Shown: positions 34,605 through 55,588, numbered from the stretch's first letter. The stretch is 64,000 nt of DNA from Candidatus Woesearchaeota archaeon (GCA_016185615.1 JACPNE010000004.1:4625-68624); one strand, 5' to 3'. Notes: generated by a model not told the origin, from the sequence alone. Program-made: numbers and translations.

Positions 34605-36035
34605 TTAGAATATGTCCATCCTATCAAGCATTTTTTCACCATAATATCTTAACGATCTTATTCTTGATAACTTCCAAGCAATATATCCAAGCGGTTTTCC
34701 AAACATATTTTGCAAAACCCATTTGTCAGCCTCAGCTGTACAATGAAGATAAGCTTTCAATCTTAATTCTTTTGGAAAATCCTCGGTCTCATAAACAATG
34801 TTCGCATATTCATATTCTTTTCCTGTTGTTTGTGTTCCCAAAGTATGGGATGCCTCATAATGGGATTCTTCAATTGGAATAATAGGGGTTGAATTTTCCT
34901 TTGCCCATTCATATAATTCTGTCTGTGGCATTGGTACAGGATTAGAATACCTTGGAAGATCAATCCCATGTTTCTTAAAGAAATTAATGCTTGCTAATTC
35001 CTTTTCATAAGTGCTTCCAGGCAATCCAACAATAAAAAATGCCTTTATCTTGATTCCAGCATCCTTGCATATCTTGATTGCCCTTACAATAACATCTACG
35101 TTAGCTGGTTTTTTCATTTGTCTAAGAACATCATCATGAACAGATTCGATTCCCATTGAGATTAAAGTACAGCCAGCTTGTTTCATCTTCTGCATCATCT
35201 CTTTATTTACAGAAGCTGCTGTTATGCCTTGCCCGACTATCCATTTTATTTTCAGATCTCTTCTTATAATCTCATCGCATATCTCAATAACTCTTTTGTT
35301 TATAAAACCGAAATTATCATCCAATATCTGGAAATTGGTTGTGCCAAATTTTTTATGTATATATTCTAATTCATCCACAACATTCTTTGGGCTTCTGTAT
35401 CTATATCTAACAAAAACTGCTGGAATTGTGCAAAAAATGCATTTATGTGGGCATCCACGGGCAGTCATTATCGGGAATTTTATTCTTTTTATATTTTTAT
35501 TATATTTTTTTAGATCAAAAAGATGCCATGCAGGAAATGGTATACTATCAATATCATCTCTTAACTCTCTTTCATTAATTATTATTTTATCATTTTCTTT
35601 ATATCCTAATCCTGGAACTGATTTCCAGTCTTTGTCATTTTGGTATTTTTCCAAGAATTCTGGAAATACAAATTCTCCCTCTCCGACCATAATGAAATCA
35701 ACATATGATTTCGGAAGTATTGATTCAGCTAATGTTGTTACTTCTGGACCACCAGCAACTATCATGATCTTTGGATTATGATTTTTGACAATCCTCATCT
35801 GATTAAATGCATTTTTAACAGTCAGAGAAGCTAGACTAAATGTAACAACGTCAGGATTAAATGATTTTAGTGTTGACTCAAATCCTTCCTCAACACCTTT
35901 TATTCTCATATCTAAAATTTTAACTTCATGTCCTGCTTTTTCCAATGCTGCAGCTATATAAGCCTGGGCTAATAAAGGTCTTTTTGGTCTGTAATTACCT
36001 ACAATATCCTTAGGTTGTGTCATTAAGATTTTCAT
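34605..36035 (-). CDS. B12-binding domain radical SAM protein (paralog A)
   Basis: N-terminal cobalamin-binding Rossmann domain, then a CxxxCxxC cluster (ARGCPHKCIFCT). The start was set to MKILMTQP by homology with the other paralogs. Confidence 0.8.
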   Translation of the reverse strand: MKILMTQPKDIVGNYRPKRPLLAQAYIAAALEKAGHEVKILDMRIKGVEEGFESTLKSFNPDVVTFSLASLTVKNAFNQMRIVKNHNPKIMIVAGGPEVTTLAESILPKSYVDFIMVGEGEFVFPEFLEKYQNDKDWKSVPGLGYKENDKIIINERELRDDIDSIPFPAWHLFDLKKYNKNIKRIKFPIMTARGCPHKCIFCTIPAVFVRYRYRSPKNVVDELEYIHKKFGTTNFQILDDNFGFINKRVIEICDEIIRRDLKIKWIVGQGITAASVNKEMMQKMKQAGCTLISMGIESVHDDVLRQMKKPANVDVIVRAIKICKDAGIKIKAFFIVGLPGSTYEKELASINFFKKHGIDLPRYSNPVPMPQTELYEWAKENSTPIIPIEESHYEASHTLGTQTTGKEYEYANIVYETEDFPKELRLKAYLHCTAEADKWVLQNMFGKPLGYIAWKLSRIRSLRYYGEKMLDRMDIF

Positions 36036-36132
36036 TTTAACTATAAAAACAGAAATTATCTGTCCCACCACCTCCAAACTTATATCTTTACCGATAATAT
36101 AATTTAAAAAGCTTTTTATTACATATTATAAA

Positions 36133-37854
36133 ATGAGAAAAGATATCAATAAACTTATACTTATATTTATTTTATTAGTTATAGCTAAGAGCTTATTGTC
36201 ATCATTCATTTTGGCTCCAAGTGAATTTTCTGATGGTTATATTTATTCTAAAATTGCGAGAAGTGTCTTCTTTTCACAAGAATTTTCTGTGCATGAAATT
36301 AGTGTAGATCACCTTCCTTTATATCCTATAATTTTATCTCCGGCATACCTTTTCCAGGATATGAACAATGTTTATTTATTTATGAAAATAATTAATGCTT
36401 TTATATCTTCATTAATAATCTTTCCAGTATTTTTCTTAGCAAAAGAATTTTTAAGTACTAAAAAATCATTCTTATTTTCCATATTAATCTCTGTTCTTCC
36501 TTCTAACTTTGCATTCTCTTCATATTTGATGACTGAAAACTTATTTTACCCCTTATTTTTAACTTCAGTTTATTTCATCTATAAATCATTCCAAGAAGAC
36601 AGAATAAAGTATGATATTCTAGCATCAGTATTTATCGGCTTGTCATTCTTGACAAGAGCTTTATCCATTGTATTAATTTTTATAGTATTTGCATTGTTTG
36701 TTTATAAAATTATAAAGAAAGATTATGAAATAAAAGATATTTCTATAAAATTAGTTTTATATATACTACCATTTTTGATAATAATCTCTCCATGGATAGT
36801 AAGAAACATGTTATTATCAAACAATGAGCTTGGAATCATTACAAGCCATTATGTCAATAAGTCATTTGCTTTACCAAGACCATTAAATATATTATTACTA
36901 TTTTCATTTATATGGACATTATTGTATTTTGGATTCATCCTTTTAGCATCTGGGGTCATATTTCCATTTATGCATCTTACAACAATAAAAGAATTTTTTA
37001 AAGAAAAAAAATTATTTTTATTATTGATTATATCTTATTTAGCAATTATTCCTATATTGATTATAATCTCAAGATATAATGCAGGAACTGTATTGTCTAA
37101 TGAGATTTTATTCAAAACTTATGGAAGACCATTAGGAAGACACATAGATGTTGTTTTGCCATTAATATTATTGCTTGGAGTTATAGGGTCAACAATGTAT
37201 AACAAAATAAAGTATAAATATCTTATTGCTACCACAATAATAACAGCAATCATACTTTTATTTTCTGTAAAATTGGTATTCTATCCTTTATTTCCGTTGA
37301 ATAATTTATCCTTGGCTTGGATTGGAACATTGAAGTATGGGATTGACTATTTGTTTTATGGAAAACAAACCACAGATGTCATATTTAGCATGATATCTTT
37401 TTTATTTTTCATATTACTATTTTTGATAATCCCTTTTAGTTTATTTTTATTGCAAAAAAATAAAAAACTTGAAACAAATAGTATAATGAAATTCTTTATC
37501 ATATTCTTCCTTTTAGTCAGCCTATTAAATTATGGATTGACATATTATAATTCAAATATATGGTATAACGGAGAACAGATGCAGTTAGGATTATGGCTTA
37601 ATGATTATGATCCTAAAATATCAAATATATTAATAGATGAAAGGGATTGTACAGGAAAAATCTCAAAAGAAGACCAATCAAGCTTATGCGAGCCGTCAAA
37701 GATATCAACAATAATTGGATTTTGGCTGAATGATGAGATTAAGATAGGAGATGTTTCTAATCTAGAGAATATAGATTATGTAATAACAAAGCATAATATG
37801 GATTTAGAGCTTGTTAAAGAGTCTGAAAGCGGAATAAGGGTATATAAAAGATGA
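36133..37854 (+). CDS. GT-C fold membrane glycosyltransferase (ArnT/PMT-like, 573 aa)
   Basis: More than ten TM helices, with the N-terminal loop/TM organisation typical of GT39/GT83-like enzymes. No WWDYG motif is present, so it is not called as AglB. Confidence 0.5.
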   Translation: MRKDINKLILIFILLVIAKSLLSSFILAPSEFSDGYIYSKIARSVFFSQEFSVHEISVDHLPLYPIILSPAYLFQDMNNVYLFMKIINAFISSLIIFPVFFLAKEFLSTKKSFLFSILISVLPSNFAFSSYLMTENLFYPLFLTSVYFIYKSFQEDRIKYDILASVFIGLSFLTRALSIVLIFIVFALFVYKIIKKDYEIKDISIKLVLYILPFLIIISPWIVRNMLLSNNELGIITSHYVNKSFALPRPLNILLLFSFIWTLLYFGFILLASGVIFPFMHLTTIKEFFKEKKLFLLLIISYLAIIPILIIISRYNAGTVLSNEILFKTYGRPLGRHIDVVLPLILLLGVIGSTMYNKIKYKYLIATTIITAIILLFSVKLVFYPLFPLNNLSLAWIGTLKYGIDYLFYGKQTTDVIFSMISFLFFILLFLIIPFSLFLLQKNKKLETNSIMKFFIIFFLLVSLLNYGLTYYNSNIWYNGEQMQLGLWLNDYDPKISNILIDERDCTGKISKEDQSSLCEPSKISTIIGFWLNDEIKIGDVSNLENIDYVITKHNMDLELVKESESGIRVYKR

Positions 37855-37937
37855 TAAAAAAATTTATATACACATCAAATTCTATAGTAAAGGATGGAGG
37901 TGAGGGTGGTTTCGTATTTTTAGTAAAACCTATTTAG

Positions 37938-39968
37938 ATGATATCTGTAATTGTGCCTGTTTATAATGATCAAGTATTCCTAGAAAAGTGTTTAACATCT
38001 ATATTTAGTTCAGATTACAAGGATTTTGAAGTTATAGTTGTTGATGACTATAGCAAAGATAATTCTGTAAATGTAGCAAAAAAATTCCCTTGTAAAATTA
38101 TAGAATTAAAAACAAATGAGGGAGTGGCAAACGCAAGAAACCAGGGAGCAGATACTGCAAAAGGGGATATTTTAGTATTTTTTGATTCTGATATTATGAT
38201 TGAAAAGGATACATTGTCAAAATTTGCTAAAGCACATGAAGATCCAAGCATAAAAGTCTGTCAGTGCCAGATTTCAACAAAGTCATTAACGAATGGATTT
38301 ACCCCAGATTTGATTGCATTGACATGGCACCATATATTTAATGTCATGGGAAGATGTCCCTCTTATCTTTCAACAATGGCCTTCTCAATAGAGAAAAAAG
38401 TATTTGATGAGATCGGCGGTTTTAATACAAACTTTGAATCATCTGGGGGGGAAGAATTCGAAATAGGAATGGAACTTAAGAAGCACGGATATTTAATTGA
38501 GTCAGATCAATCATTTAGCGTATCCCATCATTATCAATATTTCTGGCCAAGATGCAAAACATTATTCAGAAGAAGCTATGTCTATGGAAAGATATTCTTT
38601 GACAGGAATTTTCAGTTTGATAAAGGACATGGAACAATGAAAGAGGGAATTAATTCAATATTATCAATGGCAGGAATTCCTTTGTTAGCTATCTCTTTAT
38701 TCATCCCTTATACGCTTATTGCATTCCTATCTACAATAATAATACAAAATATTCTTGATATGAATAAAAATAGTTTCATTATAAAAAATAAAGGATTATT
38801 TTCCTACATTAAGTCAATACCAATAAATTATGTTTGGTATTTATCAATGGGTCTAGGTGTAATGAAAGCAGGAATTGTAAGTTATACTAAAAAATTATTC
38901 AGTCCAATAAAGAGTCTAAGCTTTTTACTATCAAAGACTCCCCCCTATGTGATATTTTTTGTAACAGCTGTATGTAATGCAAGATGTAAGCATTGCTTCT
39001 ATTGGGAGAAAGTAGCTAATCCTGATATAAGCGGAGAATTAAAATTAGATGAGATAAAGAAAATATCAGAAAGCTTTGATAAGATAGAATATATGACATA
39101 CAGTGGAGGAGAGCCAAGCTTAAGAAGGGATATAGTAAAAATCACCCAGACATTCTACAAAAATAATGGTTTAAACAGATTAAATTTTATCACAAACGGA
39201 TTTGCTCCTGAGCTTCTTGTAAAAGAGGTTAAAGGAATATTAAGAACATGCCCTAACTTAAATCTGATGGTGAGCTTCTCCATAGATGGGGTTGAGAAAC
39301 AGCATGAAGACGTAAGAAAAGTTCCTGGTGGATTTAAAAAATTAGTAAAATCAATAGAAGAGATAAAAAAATTAAAAAAGCATCATAAAAATCTGAAGAC
39401 TTTTGCAATAACAACGCATACAAAATACAATGAAGATAACCTTCCCGAAATTGTACATTATATAACTAAAAAACTAGAATTGGAGTTATGTTTGAATTAT
39501 ATACGTGGAGATCCATTGGAGAAAGAAGCAAAAGAGACAAATTTGAAGGATTATCAGAAAACATGGGACAAACTTATACAGATAAATGAGAAAAACTCAA
39601 AGCAAGGATTTACAGAGAATATTATAAGAGCCATGAATAATCTCTCTTCCAAATTAATCGCAAAAACATTGACAGGAAAGAAAAGAACAGTAAAATGTGT
39701 TACTGGAAGAAAACAGATAGAGATAGCCGAGGATGGTACAATATTCCCATGCGAGATAATGGGTGTGAATTTCGGAAATATACGAGATTATGATTATGAC
39801 ATAAAGAAAATATTAAACACAAAAAAAGCCAAGGACTTTATTGAGCATATAGAAAAAATAAAATGTCACTGTACATGGGAATGCGCAATGAAGAATAATA
39901 TCGTTTATAATCCAAGGCAATATCCGGCCTTATTCCTTGAATGGATAAAAGTTGTATTCTTAAAATAA
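37938..39968 (+). CDS. fusion protein: GT2 glycosyltransferase - TM segment - radical SAM/SPASM domain
   Basis: The N-terminus MISVIVPVYNDQ...DDYSKDNS...FFDSDI is a GT2 domain. A hydrophobic middle follows. The C-terminus has FFVTAVCNARCKHCFYW (CxxxCxxC) plus the auxiliary-cluster Cys motifs CVTG...PCE and CHCTWEC. Confidence 0.75.
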   Translation: MISVIVPVYNDQVFLEKCLTSIFSSDYKDFEVIVVDDYSKDNSVNVAKKFPCKIIELKTNEGVANARNQGADTAKGDILVFFDSDIMIEKDTLSKFAKAHEDPSIKVCQCQISTKSLTNGFTPDLIALTWHHIFNVMGRCPSYLSTMAFSIEKKVFDEIGGFNTNFESSGGEEFEIGMELKKHGYLIESDQSFSVSHHYQYFWPRCKTLFRRSYVYGKIFFDRNFQFDKGHGTMKEGINSILSMAGIPLLAISLFIPYTLIAFLSTIIIQNILDMNKNSFIIKNKGLFSYIKSIPINYVWYLSMGLGVMKAGIVSYTKKLFSPIKSLSFLLSKTPPYVIFFVTAVCNARCKHCFYWEKVANPDISGELKLDEIKKISESFDKIEYMTYSGGEPSLRRDIVKITQTFYKNNGLNRLNFITNGFAPELLVKEVKGILRTCPNLNLMVSFSIDGVEKQHEDVRKVPGGFKKLVKSIEEIKKLKKHHKNLKTFAITTHTKYNEDNLPEIVHYITKKLELELCLNYIRGDPLEKEAKETNLKDYQKTWDKLIQINEKNSKQGFTENIIRAMNNLSSKLIAKTLTGKKRTVKCVTGRKQIEIAEDGTIFPCEIMGVNFGNIRDYDYDIKKILNTKKAKDFIEHIEKIKCHCTWECAMKNNIVYNPRQYPALFLEWIKVVFLK

Positions 39969-40025
39969 ATTATATTTTGTCCTCTCAAAAGCAAAGTATA
40001 TAAGGGTTTCGTTCACAAGATAAAT

Positions 40026-40907
40026 ATGAAAAATATAGTGATTACAATACCCGCATATAATGAGGAAAAAACAATAGGATTAGTCATTAACAAGATAAAA
40101 AGTGTAATGGACAAAACAAAGTATAAATGCAAAGTTTTAGTCGTTGATGACGGTTCTAAAGATAAAACAAAAGAAGTGGCAAAAAAAGCTGGAGCTTTAG
40201 TTTATTCTCATCCTTATAATTATGGATTAGCAGAAACCTTTAGGACAGAGATGAAAAAATGCCTGGAATTAAAAGCAGATATAATAGTTCATACAGATGC
40301 AGACGGCCAATATTTAGCTGAAGAGATTCCAAACTTGATAAAAGGGGTTGAGAATGGTTATGATTTAGTTTTAGGATCAAGATTCAGGGGAAGAATACAG
40401 TATATGCCATTGACTAAGAGAATTGGAAATAATGCATTCTCAAGAGTAATCTCGAAAATAACAAGATTAAATATAACAGATGCTCAAACTGGTTTTAGGG
40501 CTTTTACAAAAGAGGTTGCTAAACTAAATATAATCTCAAATCATACCTATACCCAGGAACAAATCATAAAAGCAGTTCATAATAAATTCAGGATAAAAGA
40601 GATTCCTGCCACTTTCATAAAAAGAAAGAGCGGAAAAAGCAGGTTAATGAAGAATCCATTTGATTATGCAATCAAAGCATGGATTAATTTATTCAGGATA
40701 TATAGAGATTATAGACCATTGAAATTCTTCGGTTCATTTGGACTAATATTCCTAGGATTAGGATTATTAATAGGATTATACTTAGTATCATTATTTATAA
40801 TTACAGGAAAAGTAGGACATATTCCATTAACAATAATGTCTGTATTATTGATATTATTGGGAGTACAAGTCATATTCTTTGGATTCCTTGCAGATATGAA
40901 GAAATAA
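40026..40907 (+). CDS. polyprenol-phosphate sugar synthase-like GT2 (DPM1/GtrB-like)
   Basis: GT2 catalytic domain (ITIPAYNEE, DDGSKD, DADGQY) followed by two C-terminal TM helices. Confidence 0.7.
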   Translation: MKNIVITIPAYNEEKTIGLVINKIKSVMDKTKYKCKVLVVDDGSKDKTKEVAKKAGALVYSHPYNYGLAETFRTEMKKCLELKADIIVHTDADGQYLAEEIPNLIKGVENGYDLVLGSRFRGRIQYMPLTKRIGNNAFSRVISKITRLNITDAQTGFRAFTKEVAKLNIISNHTYTQEQIIKAVHNKFRIKEIPATFIKRKSGKSRLMKNPFDYAIKAWINLFRIYRDYRPLKFFGSFGLIFLGLGLLIGLYLVSLFIITGKVGHIPLTIMSVLLILLGVQVIFFGFLADMKK

Positions 40908-40957
40908 AGATAAATTTAATAAATAAAAGGATAATTAAATTATTGGGTGGTGTTAAG

Positions 40958-42418
40958 ATGAGGGTGCTTTTAGTAATGCCTTCTATGGATAATGGTTATT
41001 GGCAGAAATTAGGAAAGAAAGTAGGGCCAAAGTCAGAGCCTTTAAGTTTAGCTTATATGGGTGCTATGTTAAAAAGGCATGGTCACGAAGTAAAAATCCT
41101 GGATTGTGAGGCATTAGACTATTCTTTTAATGATGTTGAGAATTACTTAAATCAAAATGAATTTGATGTATTTGGGATAGCAATGCTAACTATAATGTAT
41201 TCCCAAACAATAACCCTATCAAACATAATAAAAAAAATTTATCCTCAAGCAAAGATAATAGTTGGCGGTCCTCATCCAAGTGCACATGGAAATGCCAAAG
41301 AGATTCTAGAAAAAGAAAATGTTATTGATTATGCTGTTATAGGCGAGGCTGAAAAGACATTTGCTGAGTTATTAGATGTAATAGAAGAGGAAAAAGAAAC
41401 ATATGAAGAATTATCAAAAATAGAGGGAATAGCTTTCAGAAATAAAAATAATGTTCTTATTACAAAACCAAGAGCAACTGTCAAGGAATTAGATGAATTT
41501 CCAATTCCAGACAGAAGCTTATTAGATATGAAATTATACAGGCCTTCTGTTTCATATTATAGGAAACTTCCTGCTTATATTATTTTAACTTCTAGAGGCT
41601 GTGGTTATAGATGTACTTTTTGTTCTAAAGTATTTGATAAAGAGTTTAGATTTCATTCTCCAGATAGAGTAATTGAAGAGATGAAAATTTTAATTGAAGA
41701 TTATGGAGCAAAAGAGATTGTTTTTAGGGATGATACTTTTACAATGAGATTTGACTGGACTAAGGAAGTTTGTGAAAAGATAATTGAAGAGGGATTAAAT
41801 AATAAGATAAAATGGAGTTGTATGACAAGAGTTAGTTTAGTTACTCCAGAATTATTGAAATTAATGAAGGAAGCTGGATGTTGGGGTATTCATTTTGGGG
41901 TTGAATCAGGATCTCAGAGATTATTAGATATGATAAAGAAAGATGTCACAATAAAACAGATAAAAAACGCTTTTAAATGGTGCAGGGAAGCTGGAATTGA
42001 GACAAGGGCTTTCATGATGTTGGGATTGCCAACAGAAACAAGGGATGAAAGTTTGAAAACAATACAGTTTGCTAAGGAATTAGATGCAGACTGGGCTCAA
42101 TTTACTATTACGACGCCTTATCCTGGAACTGAATTATATGACCAAGCAATGGAACTTGGAGAATTACATGGACCAAAAGACTGGGATAATTATCAGACTT
42201 GGAGTGGCTTTTCAGATCATGAATTAGTATGGACTCCTAAAGGAAGAAAATCGGATGAATTAAAAGAATTGCAAAGAAGGGCATTGTTTGAATTCTACTT
42301 TAGACCAAAAGTTATACTTAGAAAGATAACAAACATCTCAAATATTGCTTTATTAAAAAAATATGTTCTTGGGGCTATGGCTCTAGCTTCTGGTGGTAAT
42401 GGTAGACCAGTAGAATAG
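40958..42418 (+). CDS. B12-binding domain radical SAM protein (paralog B)
   Basis: B12-binding N-terminus and the SRGCGYRCTFCS motif. The ATG is preceded by GGTGGTG. Confidence 0.8.
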   Translation: MRVLLVMPSMDNGYWQKLGKKVGPKSEPLSLAYMGAMLKRHGHEVKILDCEALDYSFNDVENYLNQNEFDVFGIAMLTIMYSQTITLSNIIKKIYPQAKIIVGGPHPSAHGNAKEILEKENVIDYAVIGEAEKTFAELLDVIEEEKETYEELSKIEGIAFRNKNNVLITKPRATVKELDEFPIPDRSLLDMKLYRPSVSYYRKLPAYIILTSRGCGYRCTFCSKVFDKEFRFHSPDRVIEEMKILIEDYGAKEIVFRDDTFTMRFDWTKEVCEKIIEEGLNNKIKWSCMTRVSLVTPELLKLMKEAGCWGIHFGVESGSQRLLDMIKKDVTIKQIKNAFKWCREAGIETRAFMMLGLPTETRDESLKTIQFAKELDADWAQFTITTPYPGTELYDQAMELGELHGPKDWDNYQTWSGFSDHELVWTPKGRKSDELKELQRRALFEFYFRPKVILRKITNISNIALLKKYVLGAMALASGGNGRPVE

Positions 42419-42490
42419 GTTTATAATGTAATTACTAATTAGTGATTATAAATAGAAAGATTTATAAATTGTGGAAGGCCAGTAAATAGT

Positions 42491-42958
42491 ATGAGACGTA
42501 CATATTTATTAGCGAACAAAGATTTAGATAGAATATTCGGATTTAAGACAGAATTAGAACTTTCTTTGCCTAGAACACCACAAGAAGGTATTAGAAGTTC
42601 AATTGATTTAACCTTCTCTAGAGAAGAACATGATTTAGTAATCGGAGATGTCTTTGTAGTGGACAGAATCAAAGGTAATGGATTAGCTGGAATTGTTGAT
42701 CTTAATACCAAAAAAAGATTGACTACAGATGAGGTCAACCCATTTAGAAATTCTAATATTAGATTAAAAGGCCATTATTTGGGTGAATTAGGAAAATATT
42801 TATCTAATGATATGTCAATTTATGATAAGATTATAGTTGTTCGTTCTGAAGTAGCCCCATGGATAAAAACTATAATGGAGAAGAGAGTTCCAGAACATAT
42901 TTTGAGAGCAGCAATTAACGATAAGCCAACCGCACAATCAGCATATTTCAGCAGATAA
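42491..42958 (+). CDS. hypothetical protein (155 aa)
   Basis: ORF only. It sits inside the glycan island. Confidence 0.35.
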   Translation: MRRTYLLANKDLDRIFGFKTELELSLPRTPQEGIRSSIDLTFSREEHDLVIGDVFVVDRIKGNGLAGIVDLNTKKRLTTDEVNPFRNSNIRLKGHYLGELGKYLSNDMSIYDKIIVVRSEVAPWIKTIMEKRVPEHILRAAINDKPTAQSAYFSR

Positions 42959-43048
42959 TCAAAACAAACGATTTAAACAGAATTCTTTATTTATTTTAAT
43001 CTTAGAGATTATAAAGTTATTTTCTTATAACATCAACTAAATTTAAAA

Positions 43049-43174
43049 TTATTTCAACTTCTCTATGAACTCATTAATACAAGGCCTGCAGATTCTCTTG
43101 CCTTTAAACTCATTATAAGGCAATGGCTCTAGTACAAATTGATTACAAAATACGCATTTATCATAATTTTCCAT
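43049..43174 (-). CDS. small zinc-ribbon protein (41 aa)
   Basis: CVFC...(17)...CRPC pattern, with GAGGGG SD upstream. It overlaps the end of the preceding GT4 gene by 14 nt. Confidence 0.4.
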   Translation of the reverse strand: MENYDKCVFCNQFVLEPLPYNEFKGKRICRPCINEFIEKLK

Positions 43175-44369: not shown

Positions 44370-44442
44370 GATTTAAATTTTATAGGTTAATATTTAAAAG
44401 TATCTGAGAAAGTCTTAAAAATATAGAAATAAGGATAATATT

Positions 44443-45870: not shown

Positions 45871-45904
45871 TAAAGCATTTAAATAAAGATATGAGGGTTC
45901 TTGT

Positions 45905-47434
45905 ATGTCTGATCAGGATCTTAACAAGATAGCAAGTGGAGCAGGCATTATCTTTGTAGGTATGATATTATCAAAGATATTTGCTTATTTATACAGATTA
46001 ATAATCGCAAGAATTGGAGTAAGTGAATATGGATTAATATCGCTTGGTTTGGGAATTATCGGGATAATATCAAGCATATCAATTATTGGACTGCATAGGG
46101 GAGTATTAAGAAATGTATCATATTACAGGGGGAAAGAAGATTTAGGAAAAGTAAAAGGAGTAATAACCCTAGCATTAAAGATAAGTCTTGGAATAAGTTT
46201 ATTATTAAGCATTTTGCTTTTCATTTTTTCTGATTTCATTTCGGTAAGATATTTCCATAACGAAGATTTAAGTTTGATCCTAAAAATATTAGCTGTATCA
46301 ATTCCTTTAAGCGTTATGAATGAAATAATACTTAATACAATATTAGGATTCCAGAAAGTAGTTTATATGGTGATATCAAAGAATATAATCTTGAATCTTT
46401 CTAGGTTTTTATTGACAATAGCATTTGTATTATTCAGCAGAAATATCCTGGGATTGGCTTGGATATATGTTGTATCTTTTTTAATTTCATTTATTTTTTC
46501 ATTTTATTTCTTGGAGAGAAAAGTATTTCCAATATTAATAACAAAAATAAAATCCATAAGTGTAGGAAAAGAGTTATTTTCATTTTCATGGCCTTTGGTA
46601 TTCAGCGGATTAGGAATGTTATTGGTTGGGTGGACAGACACAATAATGCTTGGATTCTTTAAGACAGTAAATGAAGTAGGATATTATAATACAGCATTGC
46701 CAACCTCTCATTTATTGTATATAGTTCCACAAGGATTGATGATGATGGTTATCCCTACATTAACTTATCTCTTCTCAAGGAAAGAGATGGACAAATTCAA
46801 TATAATAACAAGAACAACGACAAAATGGGTATTTATGATTAATTTGATATTATTTTCATTATTTATGATGTTCGGAAAAGAGATAATAAGTATATTGTTT
46901 GGAGCACAATACTCAATAGCGGGTGATGTTTTGAGGATATTAAGTGTCGGCTTCTTCATAAATTATACAATGATATTCATGGGTCATATGCCAATAATAA
47001 AAAACAGGCCAAAATGGGATTTGTTTAATATTTCAATAGTAGCTATAACAAATATAATATTAAATTTCATTTTAATACCCCCATATGGCATATTTGGGGC
47101 GGCAATAGCAACAAGTGTTTCATTCGTTATCTTTGGTATAATTGAGTTTGTAGAAGCATTATACATATTCAATGTTGATAATCCAATAAAACTTGTTTAT
47201 TTAAAAGTAATCATATCTATAATAATCGCTTCTTTCCTTACTAGTTACTTGGCTAATAATTTAATAAGCGTTAACAATCTCATTAACTTAGTGATAATAT
47301 CACTCATCTTAACAATAGTTTATTCTGTATTATTAATAGTTACAAGGAGTTTCGACAAAGAAGATAGTGAGGTTATAAAATCAATACAAAATAAGATCGG
47401 AATAAATATCCCGTTTATAGACAGATTTATTTAA
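45905..47434 (+). CDS. oligosaccharide flippase (Wzx/MOP superfamily)
   Basis: About 14 TM helices. The length and N-terminal region are typical of polysaccharide biosynthesis flippases. Confidence 0.7.
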   Translation: MSDQDLNKIASGAGIIFVGMILSKIFAYLYRLIIARIGVSEYGLISLGLGIIGIISSISIIGLHRGVLRNVSYYRGKEDLGKVKGVITLALKISLGISLLLSILLFIFSDFISVRYFHNEDLSLILKILAVSIPLSVMNEIILNTILGFQKVVYMVISKNIILNLSRFLLTIAFVLFSRNILGLAWIYVVSFLISFIFSFYFLERKVFPILITKIKSISVGKELFSFSWPLVFSGLGMLLVGWTDTIMLGFFKTVNEVGYYNTALPTSHLLYIVPQGLMMMVIPTLTYLFSRKEMDKFNIITRTTTKWVFMINLILFSLFMMFGKEIISILFGAQYSIAGDVLRILSVGFFINYTMIFMGHMPIIKNRPKWDLFNISIVAITNIILNFILIPPYGIFGAAIATSVSFVIFGIIEFVEALYIFNVDNPIKLVYLKVIISIIIASFLTSYLANNLISVNNLINLVIISLILTIVYSVLLIVTRSFDKEDSEVIKSIQNKIGINIPFIDRFI

Positions 47435-48143
47435 TTTTTATGGCTTTTATTATAATATTATCCCCAAAAGTTCCATAATTAATATCATAATCTATATTTT
47501 TTAAATTAATAAAAAAGTTCTCAAAATATCTCTTATTTAATAATCGTGAAGTAAATATCTCAATATATGTTATGATTGTTGAAATAATTGAACTTCCTAT
47601 ATGGACTTTGTTTATTCTAAATTTATTATTAAAAATCTTGTTTAATTCTTCAACATTATAGTGTCTATGCTCTTCATTAACAATTTTTGGATTCTTTCTT
47701 TTTATTAAATAGTAAAGGGATTTATATAAGAAGGGCATTGTTATTTTCAGATTATCTGGATCAAGAAAACTAAATAATCCTTTATGCGGAACACTTAATA
47801 TAAGAATCCCATCCTTCTTCAGTATTCTATATATTTCATTAATCATAGTTTGATCATCATTAACATGCTCTAGAACATCAAGAATTGTTACAACATCAAA
47901 GAAATTTGATTTAAATAGCAGTTTCTTTGATTTTAATAATCTGAAATCAATGTTTTTATATTTCTTCTTGGCTCTGTATATAAATTCTTTATTGACATCA
48001 ATGCCATAAACATTTCTGGCTTTGTTCTTAAAGTATATTGTAAAATATCCAGAAGCGCATCCAACATCTAATAGTCTATCTATCTTATTTGGAAGCCAAT
48101 TATACGCTTTTTTAGCCCTTGTCTGCAGTCTATGCTCTGGCAT
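47427..48143 (-). CDS. class I SAM-dependent methyltransferase
   Basis: Motif I LLDVGCASGYFT. Confidence 0.65.
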   Translation of the reverse strand: MPEHRLQTRAKKAYNWLPNKIDRLLDVGCASGYFTIYFKNKARNVYGIDVNKEFIYRAKKKYKNIDFRLLKSKKLLFKSNFFDVVTILDVLEHVNDDQTMINEIYRILKKDGILILSVPHKGLFSFLDPDNLKITMPFLYKSLYYLIKRKNPKIVNEEHRHYNVEELNKIFNNKFRINKVHIGSSIISTIITYIEIFTSRLLNKRYFENFFINLKNIDYDINYGTFGDNIIIKAIKIK

Positions 48144-48253
48144 TATTGTTTATAGATAAAAAGTATTAAAAAACTAACTATCTTAGATTTTTTTAAATAG
48201 AAACATATAAATATGAATAATTTGGATTTATATTATATTTTTAAGTGGTTAAA

Positions 48254-49708
48254 ATGAAAATCGCATTTGTATGTCCAATAGCTTCTAAGTTCAATCCAGA
48301 TATGATGATTGAGCCGCTTAGTGTCGGTTATTTGGTTTCATATCTAAAATCTAAAGGTTATAAAGACTTTGAGCTATACTTTGGAGCATTTACTCCTGAA
48401 GAAGAAATAGCAGAAAAGAGTTCTAAAGCGGATATAGTCGGATTCACTACAGCATCATCTATGGTTACTCAGGGAATTAGAATAGCAGATATGATTAAAA
48501 AAATAAATCCTAATGTAATAACTGTAATAGGTGGAGCACATGCTACCGCCCTTCCTGAAAAGACATTAAGGGAATGTCCTCCAATAGACATTGTTGTTAG
48601 GGGAGAAGCTGAACACACATTCCATGAATTAATCCAAGCAATAGAAAATGGAAAAGATTTTTCCGATATAAGGGGAGTTACATACAGAAAAAATGAGAAA
48701 ATAGTAACTAATCCTGCAAGGGAATTAATTGAAGATATAGATGAAATTCCTTATCCAGACAGAGAGTTTATACAGCAAAGAATGTTTGTTAAAAAAAATC
48801 TTAAGATAGGAAAAAAGATAGCTTGGATGATGGCAACAAGGGGTTGTCCATTTATATGCAATTTCTGCACTTCAAAAGTAGTATGGAAGATAAGTTATAG
48901 AAAGAGAAGCCCAAAAAATATAGTTGGTGAGATAAAAGAATTAGTTGATAATTATGGGGTAAATCATATCAATTTTGCAGATGATACAATGACTATAGAT
49001 AAACAGTGGACTTTTGATTTGTGCAAGGAAATAAGAAGAGCAAATTTAGGAATTACATGGAGCTGCAATTCCCAGACATCTGTAGTAACAAGAGATATGT
49101 TATACGCTATGAGAAAAGCTGGTTGCGAACAAATATGGTTTGGAGTTGAGTCTGGAAATAAAAAAATCAGATGGGCTATGGAAAAATTCATAACAACAGA
49201 ATCTATAATAAATGCATTTGAATGGGCACACGAAGCAGGATTGAAGACAAGGGCATACATGATAATCGGCGGTCCTGGAGAAAGCTATGATACAATAAAA
49301 GAAAGTGAAGAATTAATGGAAAAAATTAAACCAACCGCAATAAGCTGGACTATCAATACAATGTTGCCAGGATTAAAAGGATACGATGAAGCTGTTAAAA
49401 AAGGATTAATAGAAGAGGATAAAATCGATTGGAGTGGAGTTGGATTTAGAAATATTCATTCTGCAGTCCTTCCAACTGAACATCTTAGCAAAGAAGATAT
49501 ATTATCAGAATGGGAAAGGGTAAGTGAAAAATTCAAAAACTATCAGTTCTATGACTTCCATTTTAGATATATGCCTGAATATTTATTGTATAGATTCATG
49601 ACAACAAATGTTAAACAATATCCCTTAATGACCAAGAAATTATTGAGTCATATTAAGAAGATTGATATAAGAAAGAGCTTAAGTAAAGATGCTACTTCTT
49701 ATGCCTAA
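48254..49708 (+). CDS. B12-binding domain radical SAM protein (paralog D)
   Basis: B12-binding domain plus TRGCPFICNFCTS. The start was moved to the ATG (MKIAFVCP) downstream of the GTG given in the ORF track. Confidence 0.8.
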   Translation: MKIAFVCPIASKFNPDMMIEPLSVGYLVSYLKSKGYKDFELYFGAFTPEEEIAEKSSKADIVGFTTASSMVTQGIRIADMIKKINPNVITVIGGAHATALPEKTLRECPPIDIVVRGEAEHTFHELIQAIENGKDFSDIRGVTYRKNEKIVTNPARELIEDIDEIPYPDREFIQQRMFVKKNLKIGKKIAWMMATRGCPFICNFCTSKVVWKISYRKRSPKNIVGEIKELVDNYGVNHINFADDTMTIDKQWTFDLCKEIRRANLGITWSCNSQTSVVTRDMLYAMRKAGCEQIWFGVESGNKKIRWAMEKFITTESIINAFEWAHEAGLKTRAYMIIGGPGESYDTIKESEELMEKIKPTAISWTINTMLPGLKGYDEAVKKGLIEEDKIDWSGVGFRNIHSAVLPTEHLSKEDILSEWERVSEKFKNYQFYDFHFRYMPEYLLYRFMTTNVKQYPLMTKKLLSHIKKIDIRKSLSKDATSYA

Positions 49709-51717
49709 TTAATCAGTATTTTCCACCATTTCTTTGAATTATCTTCTAAGTTATATTCATTCATAACCAATTTTCTTGCATTTATTCCAAATTTGTTTCT
49801 TAAAATTTTATTATCAATCAAAATCTTTAATTTATTGTATAATTCTTGCTTATCTTTCTGTTTTATTAAAAATCCAACTTTATTTTTGTTTATTATTTCT
49901 TTTGGACCAACGCAATCAGTTGAAACTACCGCTAATCCTGACGCCATAGCTTCTATTAATGAAATTCCAAACCATTCCTCCCAAGTGTTCAAAGAATAAG
50001 AATTTAATATGAATATGTCGCTTTGACCATACAATTTTTTCAATTCTTTTTTTGATCCTATATATCCAAGATATTTTACAGGAAAGTATTTTTCTTTGGA
50101 TTTTATCAACTCTGCTAATGGGCCATCTCCAGCAAATAAAAATTCAACTTTATTTTTGTTAAATTTTGATGATACCTCTAATATATCCCTTATCCCTTTC
50201 TCCTCAACTAATCTGCCTGTGTACAATATCTTAATCTTCTTGTTATTTTTATTCTTTAAATTATATAAATTAATATCAACGGAATGTGGAATTTGTATAA
50301 CATTATACCCTTTCGATTTTAATGCATTGTAAGCTGTCTTGGAAACTGCAACTATTTTTGTTCTTTTTAGAAACTGATGCCATATCCATTTGTTGAATAA
50401 TGGTTTTGTTTCATATTTTTTTGTATTCCAATAGGGCCATGAAGTAAAATAAATTGTATTTTTTCCTAATAAATTAAGGAAAAACATATAGTATATCATA
50501 TTGGAATATGCAGGGAATGATAATATAATATTTTTTTTAAATAATAGTTTTACAGGAGCCAAGATTCCATCAACTATATTTTTAATAGAAGGTTCTCCTT
50601 CTATAACATTAGATTTTCCTGTAAATCTTTTTCTTATTATCCTAAATAGTTTAGAATGATTATTCAATTTTATTAGTGTGTTATATAAAAATCTGGAAGA
50701 TATTCTTTTTATTTCAATGTTTTTTGTTTTTTTAAGATGATAAATATTCCAGTAATAAAAATCCTTTAATCCTGTTGTGTATATAACTAAATTATATTTT
50801 CTTAATTTTCTGATAGAAAGCATATTTTTTATTATCTTGTGAATATGAAAAAGGTTCCATAACACTGCTTTTTTGAATAAATAGATTAAAACGATTCTTG
50901 ATCTATTGGTTAATCTTCTTGTATTGAAAAGAACATTAATCTTATTTCTTTTTATTTTTGTTCTTCCTTCAACAGAAGCAAAAGATAATAGATTAATATT
51001 AAATAAGGCCATTAATATATCCTTAATTATTAATTTAAATCTAGGAAAATCAAATAATTCTCTATTATTTTTATCTAAAAACAGATATTTAAAATAAGAA
51101 TAGATATGATTTTTAGTTGTTAAGTAATATCTCTTTTCCAAGTTTAAAGAAACTTTTGATTGTAATGCATGCATGGCAATTGCTTCTCTTACATATTTGC
51201 ATTTTAGATTATTTAGTTTGCATCTCAAGAAGAAGTCTGTATCCTCATCATAAATGAAGTAAAGCTCATCAAAAAATAAATTATTTTCAATTAAAGAATT
51301 TTTTCTAATCATGAAAACAGTTGATGCTTTCAGATATCTCTCTTCATTAGAGTTTGAAGGATACATTTTGGTATTATCCTCAAAGATTATCCTTGGAAAT
51401 AATATGTCATGATTATCATATTTTAAGAATTTCTTGAGTATATCTTTTGTCAAAAAAACATCACTATCAACAAAAAAGAGATATTCTCCATTCGCTTCTT
51501 TTATTCCTACATTTCTTGCATATGCTGGACCTTTATTTGATTTGTTTCTTATTATATTTACCTTAGGAAAATTCTTTTTTATTATTTCAATTGTCTTATC
51601 ATTAGAATTATCATCAATTACAATAATTTCTTTATCACATTTGATGGAATAAATGCTTCTAATGCACCTTTCTATTGTATCTTCCCTATTGTAAGTTGGC
51701 ACTATAAATGATATCAT
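49705..51717 (-). CDS. bifunctional glycosyltransferase (N-terminal GT2 + C-terminal GT4)
   Basis: The N-terminus has MISFIVPTYNRED...DDNSNDKT (GT2). The C-terminus has YTGRLVEEKGI...GISLIEAMASGLAVVSTD (GT4). Confidence 0.75.
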   Translation of the reverse strand: MISFIVPTYNREDTIERCIRSIYSIKCDKEIIVIDDNSNDKTIEIIKKNFPKVNIIRNKSNKGPAYARNVGIKEANGEYLFFVDSDVFLTKDILKKFLKYDNHDILFPRIIFEDNTKMYPSNSNEERYLKASTVFMIRKNSLIENNLFFDELYFIYDEDTDFFLRCKLNNLKCKYVREAIAMHALQSKVSLNLEKRYYLTTKNHIYSYFKYLFLDKNNRELFDFPRFKLIIKDILMALFNINLLSFASVEGRTKIKRNKINVLFNTRRLTNRSRIVLIYLFKKAVLWNLFHIHKIIKNMLSIRKLRKYNLVIYTTGLKDFYYWNIYHLKKTKNIEIKRISSRFLYNTLIKLNNHSKLFRIIRKRFTGKSNVIEGEPSIKNIVDGILAPVKLLFKKNIILSFPAYSNMIYYMFFLNLLGKNTIYFTSWPYWNTKKYETKPLFNKWIWHQFLKRTKIVAVSKTAYNALKSKGYNVIQIPHSVDINLYNLKNKNNKKIKILYTGRLVEEKGIRDILEVSSKFNKNKVEFLFAGDGPLAELIKSKEKYFPVKYLGYIGSKKELKKLYGQSDIFILNSYSLNTWEEWFGISLIEAMASGLAVVSTDCVGPKEIINKNKVGFLIKQKDKQELYNKLKILIDNKILRNKFGINARKLVMNEYNLEDNSKKWWKILIN

Positions 51718-51770
51718 TTCTATCTAAGTTTTTAATAAGAGAAAGCTTTAAATAACATACGAGTGGAGAA

Positions 51771-52886
51771 TCAGTCTAACATTCCAAGTTTATTTTTTAT
51801 AACTTGTTTGCCATAATGATATGGACTATGATACATTGTGGATTGTAAGAAACATCCATGTGTACAGAAGCATCCCTTTACTTTTTCTCTTAACTTATCC
51901 ATCTTCTCAGAGTTCCATGCCTTGGCAAAGTCATAATCATAATTTTTAATATTATCTCCTGTCTCTAATAATTCACATACCCCAATATTACCATCCGGAT
52001 AGACTACTCCAATTAAATTTCCAGCCTGGCATTCCATCAAAGGGGCTTGTTTTTTTAATATCTTAACAGCCATCTCCATTTTTGACAAGAATACTGTTCT
52101 ATGTAAATCAAGCCAATTCTTTCTTGTATGGGTAACATCATAATTATCCTTTAATTTCTCATAAACATACTCTAAATCATCAAAATCAGGCAATCCATAT
52201 TCTTCCTTTGTCTTTGGATTTACATCAGCTAATCTTGGTCTTACAGCAAAGTAATCTGAGCCTCTTATCAATTCAAATGCATGATCAACTCCAAGTTCAT
52301 TTACTAGATTCATTATCTGATCTAACTTAAAGTGATTTTTATTAGATAATACTGTAAGAGCATTTACACTAAAATTAGGATAATCATTCTTTAATTCTTT
52401 CAATAGTTTTATAGTTTCAATCGCTTTGTCAAAAGAACCATCCATTGCTCTTACTTTATCATGATCTTCTTTTACTCCATCTATTGATACTTGAATATGA
52501 ACATTTGATTTTACTTTTGAAAGAATATCAACTGCTCTATCTCTTATAAATTTTGGAGTGAATCCATTCGTTGTTAAATTAATATTTTTTGTTTTATTCT
52601 CTTTGCTATAAACTTCACATAAGTCAGCTATCTCCTTAAACAAGAATGTCTCTCCTCCTGTTAATAAAGCGCTTTCCAAGGGATGTTTTAATGATCTGAT
52701 CATCTTCGCTTGTTCCTCAAATCCCATATCTCCGGGCTTATTCAATTCTTTCCAGTAGAAACAATGATGGCATTTTAGATTACATCTCGTTGTAACAAAA
52801 TGTATCAAAATTAATGGAGTTTGTAGTCCTCTCTTTATCTGAACTGTATATTTTCCATAATCAATTAAATTTTTTGTGAAGCTCAT
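51771..52886 (-). CDS. radical SAM/SPASM domain protein (paralog of the C-terminal half of 37938-39968)
   Basis: Carries HFVTTRCNLKCHHCFYW and a C-terminal Cys cluster (GCFCTHGCF). Confidence 0.75.
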   Translation of the reverse strand: MSFTKNLIDYGKYTVQIKRGLQTPLILIHFVTTRCNLKCHHCFYWKELNKPGDMGFEEQAKMIRSLKHPLESALLTGGETFLFKEIADLCEVYSKENKTKNINLTTNGFTPKFIRDRAVDILSKVKSNVHIQVSIDGVKEDHDKVRAMDGSFDKAIETIKLLKELKNDYPNFSVNALTVLSNKNHFKLDQIMNLVNELGVDHAFELIRGSDYFAVRPRLADVNPKTKEEYGLPDFDDLEYVYEKLKDNYDVTHTRKNWLDLHRTVFLSKMEMAVKILKKQAPLMECQAGNLIGVVYPDGNIGVCELLETGDNIKNYDYDFAKAWNSEKMDKLREKVKGCFCTHGCFLQSTMYHSPYHYGKQVIKNKLGMLD

Positions 52887-52887
52887 T

Positions 52888-54456
52888 TTAGTAGTAAAAG
52901 TCAGCCATTGATCTGTTTTTAATTATATCTAGTGGCTGCATTATCATTTTTCTTCCTTTTCTTACATTATTTACAATATTATCTTTTATAATCCTAGTAA
53001 TTCCAGGAAAATTCTTGTATAAAAACTTATAAGGGGTTTTTAATGGAAATACTAAGAGATTAGATAACGGTAATAATGTTATTAATGATTTATGAATCTT
53101 TTCATTAAGGAATATTTTATCTATAATTTTACTATTACCAAATAATTGGTATAATCTCATGAATATCCTAAAGTATCTGTATGAAAATAAAACAGCTTGT
53201 TGATTTATTGAATCTTGTTTTATAATGTTTTCATCAAAATAAGTCCCGAATTTAGCTGAATCTTCTGTTATCCATCCCTCTTTTATGGCTGTGTTATATA
53301 ATTCTGTATTTGGATAAGGCTGCCATATACTCAAATGTACTGAAGTTGCTTTTATCTTAGCGCATAACTTTATTGTCTCAAGTATATTTGATAAAGTTTC
53401 ATAAGGAAATCCAATCATTACATAAGCTCTAGTTTTAATTCCATATTTATTACAAGCATCAAAAGCTTCCTGTATTTTTTCAGTTGGTGTTACCCTTTTC
53501 AATATTTTCTCTCTTAATTCTGAATTTCCAGACTCAACACCCATGCAAAGCTCGACAAAGTTTGCTTTCTTAAGATATTTTGCAGTCTCAAAATTTACTA
53601 AGTCAACCCTTGTATTAGCCATTAATGGCAGATTAATTTCCTTGCTGTATTTTTCTGAGAAATCCTTAAGCCATGTCTTGTTTAATCCAAATGTATCATC
53701 TAATAGTTCAACATGATCCATATAAGGATATTTTTTAACGCATTCTTTTAATTCATTTACAACATTGTCAACAGACCTCATCCTTACAAACTTTCCTTTT
53801 CCTTTGTATAACTCCTGAAATTGTGGTTCAGAACAATAAGTGCATGTAAAAGGACATCCCCTTGTTGTGATTACATTTAATTTTTTTATCTTGGCCTGGA
53901 CTAAATTATTAAAGTCAAATAAATCTCTATCCGGATAAGGAAGCTCATCTAGATTATCACTTAAATTTCTTACAGGATTTCTATATATTTTTCCATCTTT
54001 CTTTATCCATAATCCATCTATTTTTGTATAATCCTGTTTCTTGTCTATTTTATTGCATAATTCAACAAATGCCTCTTCTGATTCCCCTATTGAGATTACA
54101 TCTATGCCTTCTTTCTTCAAAACCCTCTCAGAATCTATAGTTGCATGTATCCCACCAAAAATTGTTATGGCTTTTGGGAATTCTTCTTTTACTAACGGAG
54201 CTATTTTTTCTATTTTATCGAACTGGTTAGAATAAGCAGTATAACAAATTAAATCTGGATTATAATCTTTAATGTTTTTTATTAATTCTTGAACATTAAT
54301 CTCACCAAGAATATGTAATAATTTGGTTTTATGCCCTTCCTTCTTTGCACAGGCTGAGAGCATAGCTAACCCTAAATGATAAGAGCCTTTATACTCTTCA
54401 TCTGTCATAATATCTGTTATATAGTTATAATCTGGAAAAACAAAAAGGATCCTCAT
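52888..54456 (-). CDS. B12-binding domain radical SAM protein (paralog E)
   Basis: B12-binding domain plus TTRGCPFTCTYCSE. The start was set to MRILFVFPD, preceded by GGTGTGGTGG. Confidence 0.8.
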   Translation of the reverse strand: MRILFVFPDYNYITDIMTDEEYKGSYHLGLAMLSACAKKEGHKTKLLHILGEINVQELIKNIKDYNPDLICYTAYSNQFDKIEKIAPLVKEEFPKAITIFGGIHATIDSERVLKKEGIDVISIGESEEAFVELCNKIDKKQDYTKIDGLWIKKDGKIYRNPVRNLSDNLDELPYPDRDLFDFNNLVQAKIKKLNVITTRGCPFTCTYCSEPQFQELYKGKGKFVRMRSVDNVVNELKECVKKYPYMDHVELLDDTFGLNKTWLKDFSEKYSKEINLPLMANTRVDLVNFETAKYLKKANFVELCMGVESGNSELREKILKRVTPTEKIQEAFDACNKYGIKTRAYVMIGFPYETLSNILETIKLCAKIKATSVHLSIWQPYPNTELYNTAIKEGWITEDSAKFGTYFDENIIKQDSINQQAVLFSYRYFRIFMRLYQLFGNSKIIDKIFLNEKIHKSLITLLPLSNLLVFPLKTPYKFLYKNFPGITRIIKDNIVNNVRKGRKMIMQPLDIIKNRSMADFYY

Positions 54457-55541: not shown

Positions 55542-55588
55542 AATTCTTTAATAATAAGTTTCTTAAACATTTCTACCTTCTATTTTCA

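Follow-up and report, generated by a model that had tools for sequence, protein, structure and literature searches.

Five cobalamin-type radical SAM genes and their neighbours

We analysed a 64,000-nucleotide stretch from a Candidatus Woesearchaeota archaeon (GCA_016185615.1, JACPNE010000004.1:4625-68624; hereafter the window, with positions counted from its first letter), in which five genes for B12-binding radical S-adenosylmethionine (SAM) enzymes lie among genes for glycosyltransferases (GTs). The window has a G+C content of about 30%, its closest named homologs are from 'Candidatus Nanoarchaeia archaeon' metagenome-assembled genomes (MAGs), and three metagenome contigs (from SRR12113422, SRR12113430 and SRR12113433) contain identical fragments. 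The five open reading frames (ORFs) are rSAM1 (34605-36035, minus strand, 476 aa), rSAM2 (40958-42418, plus strand, 486 aa), rSAM3 (44443-45870, plus strand, 475 aa), rSAM4 (48254-49708, plus strand, 484 aa) and rSAM5 (52888-54456, minus strand, 522 aa). A first-pass annotation, made from the sequence alone, had placed them at these positions, and they are real: their starts are those of the gene calls on the identical metagenome contigs (486, 475, 484 and 522 aa). Longer TTG or GTG starts, slightly upstream, are possible for four of the five.

The architecture that had been read from these ORFs was found in every one. Each carries an N-terminal B12-binding domain (PF02310; E 6e-16 to 4.5e-22, 59-79 bits against a cut-off of 32.1; 2e-20 in rSAM1) followed by a Radical_SAM domain (PF04055; E 1e-21 to 8e-30, 78-105 bits; 2e-26 in rSAM1) with an intact CxxxCxxC, and the five align with each other over their full length, as had been claimed. 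The motif strings quoted in the first pass stand as a consensus and fail as invariants. Invariant across the five-way alignment are R-G-C, C...C..C, the GG of the cobalamin-domain fingerprint, DD and G.ES. Exceptions to the quoted strings occur in rSAM1, rSAM2, rSAM4 and rSAM5: the cluster motif, which in rSAM1 is a regular RGCPHKCIFC, reads RGCGYRC in rSAM2 and contains CTYC in rSAM5; the cobalamin-domain motif of rSAM1 is GGPEVT, with no His and with Glu where the other paralogs have His; rSAM4 and rSAM5 have HAT instead of HP(S/T); and the GCxxI block of rSAM5 lacks the 'GC'. CysS, which is a methylase, has Gln in place of the His of GGxH, so this His is not essential. Seven of the 14 genes between 34.6 and 54.5 kb encode radical SAM proteins, five of the B12 type and two others, and the presence of five family members among 14 genes excludes chance clustering.

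Gene content was determined by Pfam and NCBIfam scans of ORFs of at least 120 aa across the window, and statements below on genes absent from it refer to these scanned ORFs. rSAM1 adjoins a class I methyltransferase gene and is divergent from a gene for a GT-C glycosyltransferase (PMT_2; 36133-37854, plus strand, 573 aa, about 11 transmembrane segments; PF13231, 6e-11). Next on the same strand come a 676-aa fusion of a GT2, one transmembrane segment and a radical SAM/SPASM enzyme (37938-39968; PF00535, 1e-32; PF04055, 8e-18; PF13186 SPASM) and a 293-aa GT2 of the polyprenyl-phosphate sugar synthase type (40026-40907), recognised by structure matches and C-terminal transmembrane segments. This GT2 gives full-length matches to the P. 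furiosus dolichyl-phosphate-mannose (Dol-P-Man) synthase 5mlz (1e-17), ArnC (1e-14) and GtrB (8e-08), has three hydrophobic segments at residues 231-290, and is followed after 51 nt by the start of rSAM2. rSAM3 lies between a divergent GT4 gene (GT4a; 43161-44369, minus strand; PF00534, 1e-39) and, 35 nt downstream, a Wzx-type flippase gene on the plus strand (PF01943, 3e-25), which is followed by a class I methyltransferase gene on the minus strand (PF08241, 4e-22), the two together spanning 45905-48143. After rSAM4 come a 670-aa GT2-GT4 fusion (49705-51717, minus strand; PF00535 and PF00534) and, 54 nt upstream of that gene, a stand-alone radical SAM gene (rSAM371; 51771-52886, minus strand, 371 aa; PF04055, 2e-22). 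rSAM5 lies 1 nt upstream of rSAM371 and directly downstream of GT9a, one of two divergent GT9 (heptosyltransferase-family) genes at 54471-56707 (PF01075, 4e-39 and 6e-27).

Tailoring genes lie on one side of this core, at 30572-34563: a NodU-like carbamoyltransferase, an LPG_synthase_TM/TIGR00374 flippase-like protein, a CDP-alcohol phosphatidyltransferase and a class I methyltransferase. On the other side, at 56752-63814, genes for dTDP-sugar supply comprise RmlB (452 bits on TIGR01181, cut-off 365), a long-form RmlA (463 bits on TIGR01208, cut-off 320), two unknown ORFs, a GT4 and a DegT aminotransferase (PF01041, 3e-132). The glycan setting that the first pass had suggested is thus borne out, the cluster holding GT2, GT4, GT9, GT-C, Wzx, RmlA/RmlB, DegT and carbamoyltransferase genes together with three class I methyltransferases.

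Distant paralogs with conserved transferase partners

The other four paralogs are 25-34% identical to rSAM1 in the five-way alignment, and pairwise BLASTP identities among the five are 28-33%. In a BLAST sample of 278 family members, each paralog had between 9 and 103 relatives in other organisms, bacteria and other archaeal phyla among them, that matched it more closely than did the nearest of its paralogs in the window. Recent tandem duplication was rejected, as that nearest paralog ranked only 10th to 104th among the hits. The 'five-fold expansion' of the first-pass annotation, with near-copies acting iteratively, is contradicted by these results, since every paralog has closer relatives outside the window and each has its own orthogroup and partner transferase. 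Judged from these alignments, the five are distinct, anciently diverged enzymes.

Their orthogroups differ in size and range. rSAM1 and rSAM4 are without close relatives in the sample, with best matches of 37% identity for rSAM1 and, outside the window, 38% for rSAM4. The rSAM2 orthogroup is large and tight; among the 120 best cluster representatives listed none is below 47% identity and nearly all are full-length, and it takes in bacteria, namely Ca. Scalindua rubra (49%) and a Nitrospiraceae MAG (47%). Orthologs of rSAM3 with 77-96% identity occur in marine Nanoarchaeia and relatives with 40-56% identity elsewhere, and the rSAM5 orthogroup is small and confined to Nanoarchaeota. In a sister lineage (loci L004-L006, from GCA_030745695.1 and a Tara Oceans contig) the core gene order is kept at 61-86% identity: GT2-rSAM/SPASM, GT2, rSAM2, GT4 (GT4a is 82% conserved in L004), rSAM3, Wzx, methyltransferase, GT4, GT9, GT9. 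The same loci lack rSAM4, the GT2 half of the GT2-GT4 fusion (L004 has the GT4 half only), rSAM371 and rSAM5. This block therefore behaves as a swappable module, which is usual for glycan loci.

The link to glycan assembly held for the orthologs as well, because transferase partners are kept at their loci in other genomes. At most a few genes separate the rSAM2 orthologs (47-82% identity) from GT2, PMT_2, CDP-OH_P_transf, LPG_synthase_TM and methyltransferase genes, as found in neighbourhoods from a Tara archaeon, a JGI contig, Ca. Scalindua, Nitrospiraceae and loci L004 and L028. The order in the Tara archaeon (L089) is LPG_synthase_TM, CDP-OH transferase, GT2 (40%), PMT_2 (43%), rSAM2 ortholog (56%) and methyltransferases; on the JGI contig it is CDP-OH transferase, GT2, GT4, rSAM2 ortholog, methyltransferase and PMT_2. 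Ca. Scalindua rubra (L087; GCA_001723765.1) has LPG_synthase_TM, rSAM2 ortholog, PMT_2 and carbamoyltransferase, and the Nitrospiraceae locus (L088) has rSAM2 ortholog, GT2 and methyltransferase. Families of the window's tailoring genes at 30572-34563 also flank the rSAM2 orthologs in L087, L089 and the P0235 contig. That the bacterial orthologs (47-49%) sit in the same type of module suggests transfer of whole modules between domains.

Two further partnerships were conserved. A GT9 gene followed by rSAM5 is common to three Nanoarchaeota lineages, the window, L091 (57% and 53% identity for the two genes) and L092 (35% and 43%), with a 4-nt overlap between the GT9a and rSAM5 orthologs in L091 and a 2-nt gap in L092, where the pair lies beside an SIS isomerase gene and fused HldE heptose genes. 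Relatives of rSAM3 with 41-43% identity occur in Wzx/GT4/DegT clusters, one (L093) with NTP-transferase, dehydratase, epimerase, DegT, the rSAM gene, methyltransferase and GT4, with Wzx nearby, and the other (L094) with Wzx, methyltransferase, the rSAM gene, epimerase and GT4.

The two SPASM-type enzymes are also tied to transferases. The full-length architecture of GT2, transmembrane segment and rSAM/SPASM occurs in about 45 of the best 150 cluster representatives, at 24-47% identity, and the family appears to be uncharacterised. rSAM371 is a paralog of the rSAM/SPASM half of the fusion (27% identity over 345 aa, E 3e-34). The GT2 fusion, together with rSAM371 beside the GT2-GT4 fusion, is a physical link between radical SAM enzymes and transferases.

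These neighbourhoods bear on the proposal that the enzymes act on lipids, tailoring isoprenoid membrane lipids or the polyprenyl carrier, possibly even host-derived lipids, in the manner of GrsA/GrsB or Gmm. Those enzymes are B12-binding radical SAM proteins too, Gmm clusters with the SPASM/Twitch enzyme Gms, and homologs are present in a few DPANN archaea (Diapherotrites, Parvarchaeota, Aenigmarchaeota, Nanoarchaeota and Nanohaloarchaea) (PMC11214058; PMC13459092). The window likewise pairs B12-type with SPASM-type radical SAM genes, and it contains the CDP-alcohol phosphatidyltransferase and the LPG_synthase_TM protein. However, its scanned ORFs include no tes, gms or grs gene and none for isoprenoid-lipid synthesis, the two SPASM-type enzymes have no domain besides radical SAM, Fer4_12 and SPASM, apart from the GT2 fused to one of them, and it is glycosyltransferases and flippases that form the conserved partners of the rSAM2, rSAM3 and rSAM5 orthologs. 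On the model TIGR04072 for lipid B12-rSAM enzymes the scores were 110-149 bits, compared to a cut-off of 360. The lipid-core alternative that had been raised in the first pass finds no backing in the gene context, and we regard lipid tailoring as improbable.

A scan of GTDB genomes with a profile of the five paralogs returned more than 600 pattern matches, the best loci being just 34-37% identical, and 39 of the 80 loci that were fetched contained at least two B12-rSAM genes. There were five to seven copies per locus in Bathyarchaeia, six in an unclassified bacterium, and four in Nanoarchaeia, Elusimicrobia, Omnitrophota and Anaerolineales. A Pfam census of 132 ORFs adjoining B12-rSAM genes in 16 other multi-copy loci (among L007-L086) gave 14 Radical_SAM proteins (8 with SPASM), 12 GT2, about 9 class I methyltransferases, 7 PMT_2, 6 GT4 and 3 Wzx. 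Judged by this census and the copy numbers, the cluster of five exemplifies a pattern that is widespread and uncharacterised. In Bathyarchaeia the co-occurrence with rSAM/SPASM genes may derive in part from Gms/Gmm/Grs lipid clusters. We also observed CobD/CbiB cobinamide-phosphate synthase in 3 of the 132 census ORFs, at most 3.5 kb from B12-rSAM genes, which is indirect support for the use of cobalamin by such clusters. The nitrogenase-paralog-associated radical SAM clusters described in Elusimicrobia were considered and rejected, as the window showed no NifH/D/K-like genes.

Other features of the window were recorded. Upstream of the glycan genes lie an epimerase, a UDP-glucose-dehydrogenase-like ORF and a kinase/nucleotidyltransferase resembling a split HldE. 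The last consists of adjoining PfkB kinase and cytidylyltransferase-like genes (9499-10951, minus strand) of the ADP-heptose pathway type, and it fits the two GT9 genes. The UDP-glucose/GDP-mannose dehydrogenase-like ORF (7018-7878, minus strand) has just 286 aa and lacks the C-terminal UDP-binding domain; the next ORF, the epimerase (6048-7082, minus strand), overlaps it by 65 nt, and the dehydrogenase-like ORF may be truncated or frameshifted. The long-form RmlA (57719-59599, plus strand) has about 270 extra N-terminal residues with only faint GT2 similarity. An 817-aa ORF at 25625-28078 (minus strand) has no Pfam match, an N-terminal hydrophobic segment, a C-terminal transmembrane anchor and 35 N-x-S/T sequons, that is 43 per 1000 aa compared to 3-15 in other large unknown ORFs; it is encoded about 2 kb upstream of the glycan genes and is a candidate for a glycosylated protein of the cell surface or of S-layer-like type. 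Further upstream, at 14588-19448 (minus strand), are genes for pyruvate/2-oxoacid dehydrogenase E1 alpha, E1 beta and E2 and a lipoate-protein ligase, in what is putatively a genome-reduced DPANN archaeon.

Fold, family placement and clues to chemistry

The AlphaFold2 model of rSAM3 (predicted local distance difference test, pLDDT, 93.6) has a beta-alpha Rossmann domain followed by a TIM barrel. A Foldseek search, made with this model only, retrieved AprD4, TsrM, QCMT, CysS, OxsB and TokK (E 1e-19 to 3e-24) at 17-20% identity and template modelling (TM) scores of 0.62-0.74, AprD4 being the best at 0.74. Together with the domain content, this set assigns to the five the architecture of class-B (cobalamin-type) radical SAM enzymes of structural class I. 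Binding of cobalamin is likewise predicted, from the domain and its motif; a similar fold can be without cobalamin, as in AprD4. A search of the PDB with the five-paralog profile returned AprD4, QCMT/MgmA, OxsB, TokK, CysS and TsrM. AprD4 (6fd2) was the best match, with an E value of 2.6e-40 over residues 165-395 only, the radical SAM half, and QCMT (9CCB; PMC12931638) was the second best.

No paralog reached the cut-off of any curated NCBIfam class-B family (BchE, HpnJ, PhpK, HpnR, QCMT and others). The best matches were to BchE (161-220 bits, cut-off 481) and HpnJ (164-216 bits, cut-off 577.6), followed by PhpK, Sden_1168 and ApyD, and HpnJ was the best or second-best match for all five. Scores also stayed below the cut-offs for HpnR (89-123 vs 650), PhpK (110-187 vs 600), KedN5 (65-104 vs 700), QCMT (89-130 vs 360), the ribosomally synthesised and post-translationally modified peptide (RiPP) C-methyltransferase model TIGR03975 (78-141 vs 282) and ApyD (130-174 vs 750). 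The TsrM model gave 33-52 bits (cut-off 500) for rSAM1-4 and was not among the 25 families shown for rSAM5, and the AprD4 model NF033070 gave 58-108 bits (cut-off 500) in matches beginning at residue 102-176. The five are thus new, unassigned members of a known enzyme class, and their chemistry is not readable from homology. Phosphonate chemistry of the Fom3/PhpK kind was considered for rSAM3, which scored highest on the PhpK and Sden_1168 models, and rejected, as these scores were below the cut-offs and no PEP mutase was found in the window.

Modification of a peptide or protein would be another use for such enzymes, with methylation of a RiPP precursor or a surface protein in the manner of PoyC, ApyD or QCMT. 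The scores on ApyD and TIGR03975 point in this direction, as does the rank of QCMT in the PDB search; yet those scores fall short of the cut-offs, and the cluster contains no precursor-like small ORF, peptidase or ABC exporter. A 155-aa ORF follows rSAM2, but the sister lineage L004 does not have it. RiPP maturation was rejected on the absence of precursor, protease and exporter, and we consider peptide or protein modification in general very improbable.

Individual residues were compared with those of characterised enzymes. In the column of the fourth cluster ligand of TsrM (E273) all five have Asn or Thr, so that an iron site stays open to SAM. TokK has Trp76 at the lower axial face of cobalamin, a position where a hydrophobic residue is the rule in methylases (PMC12931638). 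This Trp aligns to F72 of rSAM3, and the same column holds L, I, F, S and N in rSAM1 to rSAM5, in a loop where the alignment is uncertain. The residue two past the third cysteine (TokK W215, TsrM E236) was tried as a discriminator and discarded; it is I, K, V, S and E in the five and is highly variable across the 278 members.

Some or all of the five could act on sugars without methylating them, by ring contraction to a carbocycle, AprD4-like 1,2-diol dehydration or deoxygenation, epimerisation or oxidation. The best curated-profile matches, HpnJ and BchE, agree with this. Ring contraction has been shown for OxsB and is a proposal for Cds and for HpnJ, whose substrate would be the glucosamine ring of a glycolipid made by a GT2 (PMC13459092). 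The sugar diol-dehydratase AprD4 is the best PDB match in both sequence and fold, the cobalamin-tuning positions of rSAM4 and rSAM5 are polar, a mere 25-34% identity among the five leaves space for differing chemistries, and the class I methyltransferases already give the cluster a capacity for methylation. On the other hand, the scores are far under the cut-offs of these families (HpnJ 577, BchE 481, AprD4 500), and the AprD4 match covers the radical SAM half only, leaving the N-terminal domain of AprD4 unmatched where PF02310 is strong in the present enzymes. In addition, most class-B enzymes characterised so far are C-methylases, among them GenK, GenD1 and MoeK5, which act on sugars (PMC9204698; PMC12931638). 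We rate non-methylating sugar chemistry as less likely than methylation but as a serious rival, well ahead of lipid or peptide substrates.

Proposed sugar tailoring and comparison with known systems

Taken together, we propose, with a probability of roughly 0.55, that these are five class-B enzymes of a surface-glycan locus in a marine DPANN archaeon (Nanoarchaeia), each tailoring the sugar of its own transferase, with C-methylation as the likeliest chemistry because of the precedent of GenK, GenD1 and MoeK5. The glycan-tailoring role is well supported by gene context; for substrates and methylation chemistry we infer the following. rSAM2 would act on the dolichyl- or polyprenyl-phosphate hexose made by the adjacent Dol-P-Man-synthase-like GT2. 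It would modify this Dol-P-hexose at the cytoplasmic face, after which the product would be flipped and then transferred by the PMT_2 GT-C enzyme, following a logic like that of ArnC/ArnD/ArnT, GtrA/B/C or AglD/R/S. Candidates for the later steps lie nearby, namely PMT_2 as the GT-C, and Wzx (PF01943) and the LPG_synthase_TM/TIGR00374 protein as predicted flippases. rSAM5 would modify the sugar that is added or accepted by the GT9 'heptosyltransferase', and rSAM3 a dTDP-sugar or lipid-linked oligosaccharide of the Wzx/GT4 branch. In each case, a 5'-deoxyadenosyl radical would take a hydrogen atom from an unactivated sugar carbon and methyl-cobalamin would give the methyl group.

Several observations weigh against this proposal. 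We know of no C-methylated sugar from any archaeal glycan, and our literature search, which took in DPANN and N-glycan/dolichol pathways, found no paper linking radical SAM enzymes to archaeal glycan assembly. None of the paralogs met the cut-off of a methylase family, and both the top profile matches (BchE, HpnJ) and the top structure match (AprD4) are non-methylases. At the residue level, the TokK-Trp76 column, uncertainly aligned in its loop, is Ser in rSAM4 and Asn in rSAM5, and rSAM5 has Glu two residues past the third cysteine, like TsrM. One rSAM2 ortholog (L090; JGI 3300031576, DPANN, 517-kb contig; 55% identity) has only housekeeping neighbours (ribosomal, gyrase and transcription genes), and glycan genes are absent within 7 kb of it. 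Finally, genes for cobalamin uptake or salvage were not found among the scanned ORFs of the window, nor was a cobalamin riboswitch (Rfam found tRNA-Gly only), and the archaeal lineages listed with a complete cobalamin pathway do not include DPANN (PMC11459464), so scavenging of B12 is implied.

The proposal can be extended to other organisms. Tentatively, and at less than even odds, DPANN archaea and several uncultivated bacteria with the rSAM2 module may use B12-rSAM and GT2-fused SPASM enzymes to rewrite sugars, at unactivated carbons, while these are attached to polyprenyl phosphate or nucleotide. Flippases and GT-C enzymes would then export them, yielding C-methylated or carbocyclic products and, in a genome-reduced symbiont, an envelope dependent on B12 scavenged from the host or community. 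If this is true, radical C-H chemistry would be a regular feature of envelope glycans in DPANN and some uncultivated bacteria, beyond antibiotic pathways, it would predict sugar structures new to archaeal glycobiology, and B12 would be added as a concrete cofactor to the host dependence of DPANN. The conserved pairs provide small, defined gene sets: the Dol-P-sugar-synthase GT2 with rSAM2 and the GT-C, and GT9 with rSAM5.

Among known systems close to the proposed tailoring, GenK and GenD1 (gentamicin) and MoeK5 (moenomycin phosphoglycolipid) have the same B12 plus radical SAM architecture and act on sugar carbons in glycosyltransferase-rich pathways. In the moenomycin pathway glycosyltransferases, a carbamoyltransferase and a lipid-linked glycan come together. 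All three enzymes are cobalamin-dependent radical SAM C-methyltransferases of sugars (PMC9204698). They belong to actinomycete antibiotic pathways, whereas here five distinct enzymes occur in an archaeal primary surface-glycan locus; the comparison is one of architecture and pathway. HpnJ, which with HpnI (a GT2) and HpnK makes the hopanoid cyclitol ether, offers a B12-type radical SAM enzyme acting after a GT2 on a lipid-linked sugar; however, scores here are far under its cut-off, its proposed reaction is ring contraction and not methylation, and no shc, hpn or bch genes were found among the scanned ORFs of the window. The apramycin enzyme AprD4, a radical SAM 1,2-diol dehydratase, likewise has a sugar as substrate and is the best structure match, but the five paralogs keep a strong PF02310. 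TokK, CysS, QCMT/MgmA, TsrM and OxsB have the same two-domain fold (TM 0.62-0.73), with the GG fingerprint and CxxxCxxC in common, at 17-20% identity; the present enzymes lack the large C-terminal domains that TokK, CysS and OxsB have, and the substrates of these known enzymes (carbapenem, polyketide, protein, tryptophan and nucleoside) are unrelated.

The archaeal lipid enzymes GrsA/GrsB and Gmm belong to the same broad superfamily and also co-occur with SPASM-type radical SAM proteins (PMC11214058), but their partners are the tes and gms lipid genes, while those at the present loci are glycosyltransferases. For the rSAM2 module, the counterparts are the three-component polyprenyl-phosphate-sugar systems GtrA/B/C, ArnC/ArnD/ArnT, CsbB/YfhO and AglD/AglR/AglS, for which the window has a matching GT2, a GT-C (PMT_2) and candidate flippases. 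ArnD is a precedent for the tailoring of a sugar while it is attached to lipid. To our knowledge no such system includes a radical SAM enzyme; here a B12-rSAM gene is among the conserved neighbours.

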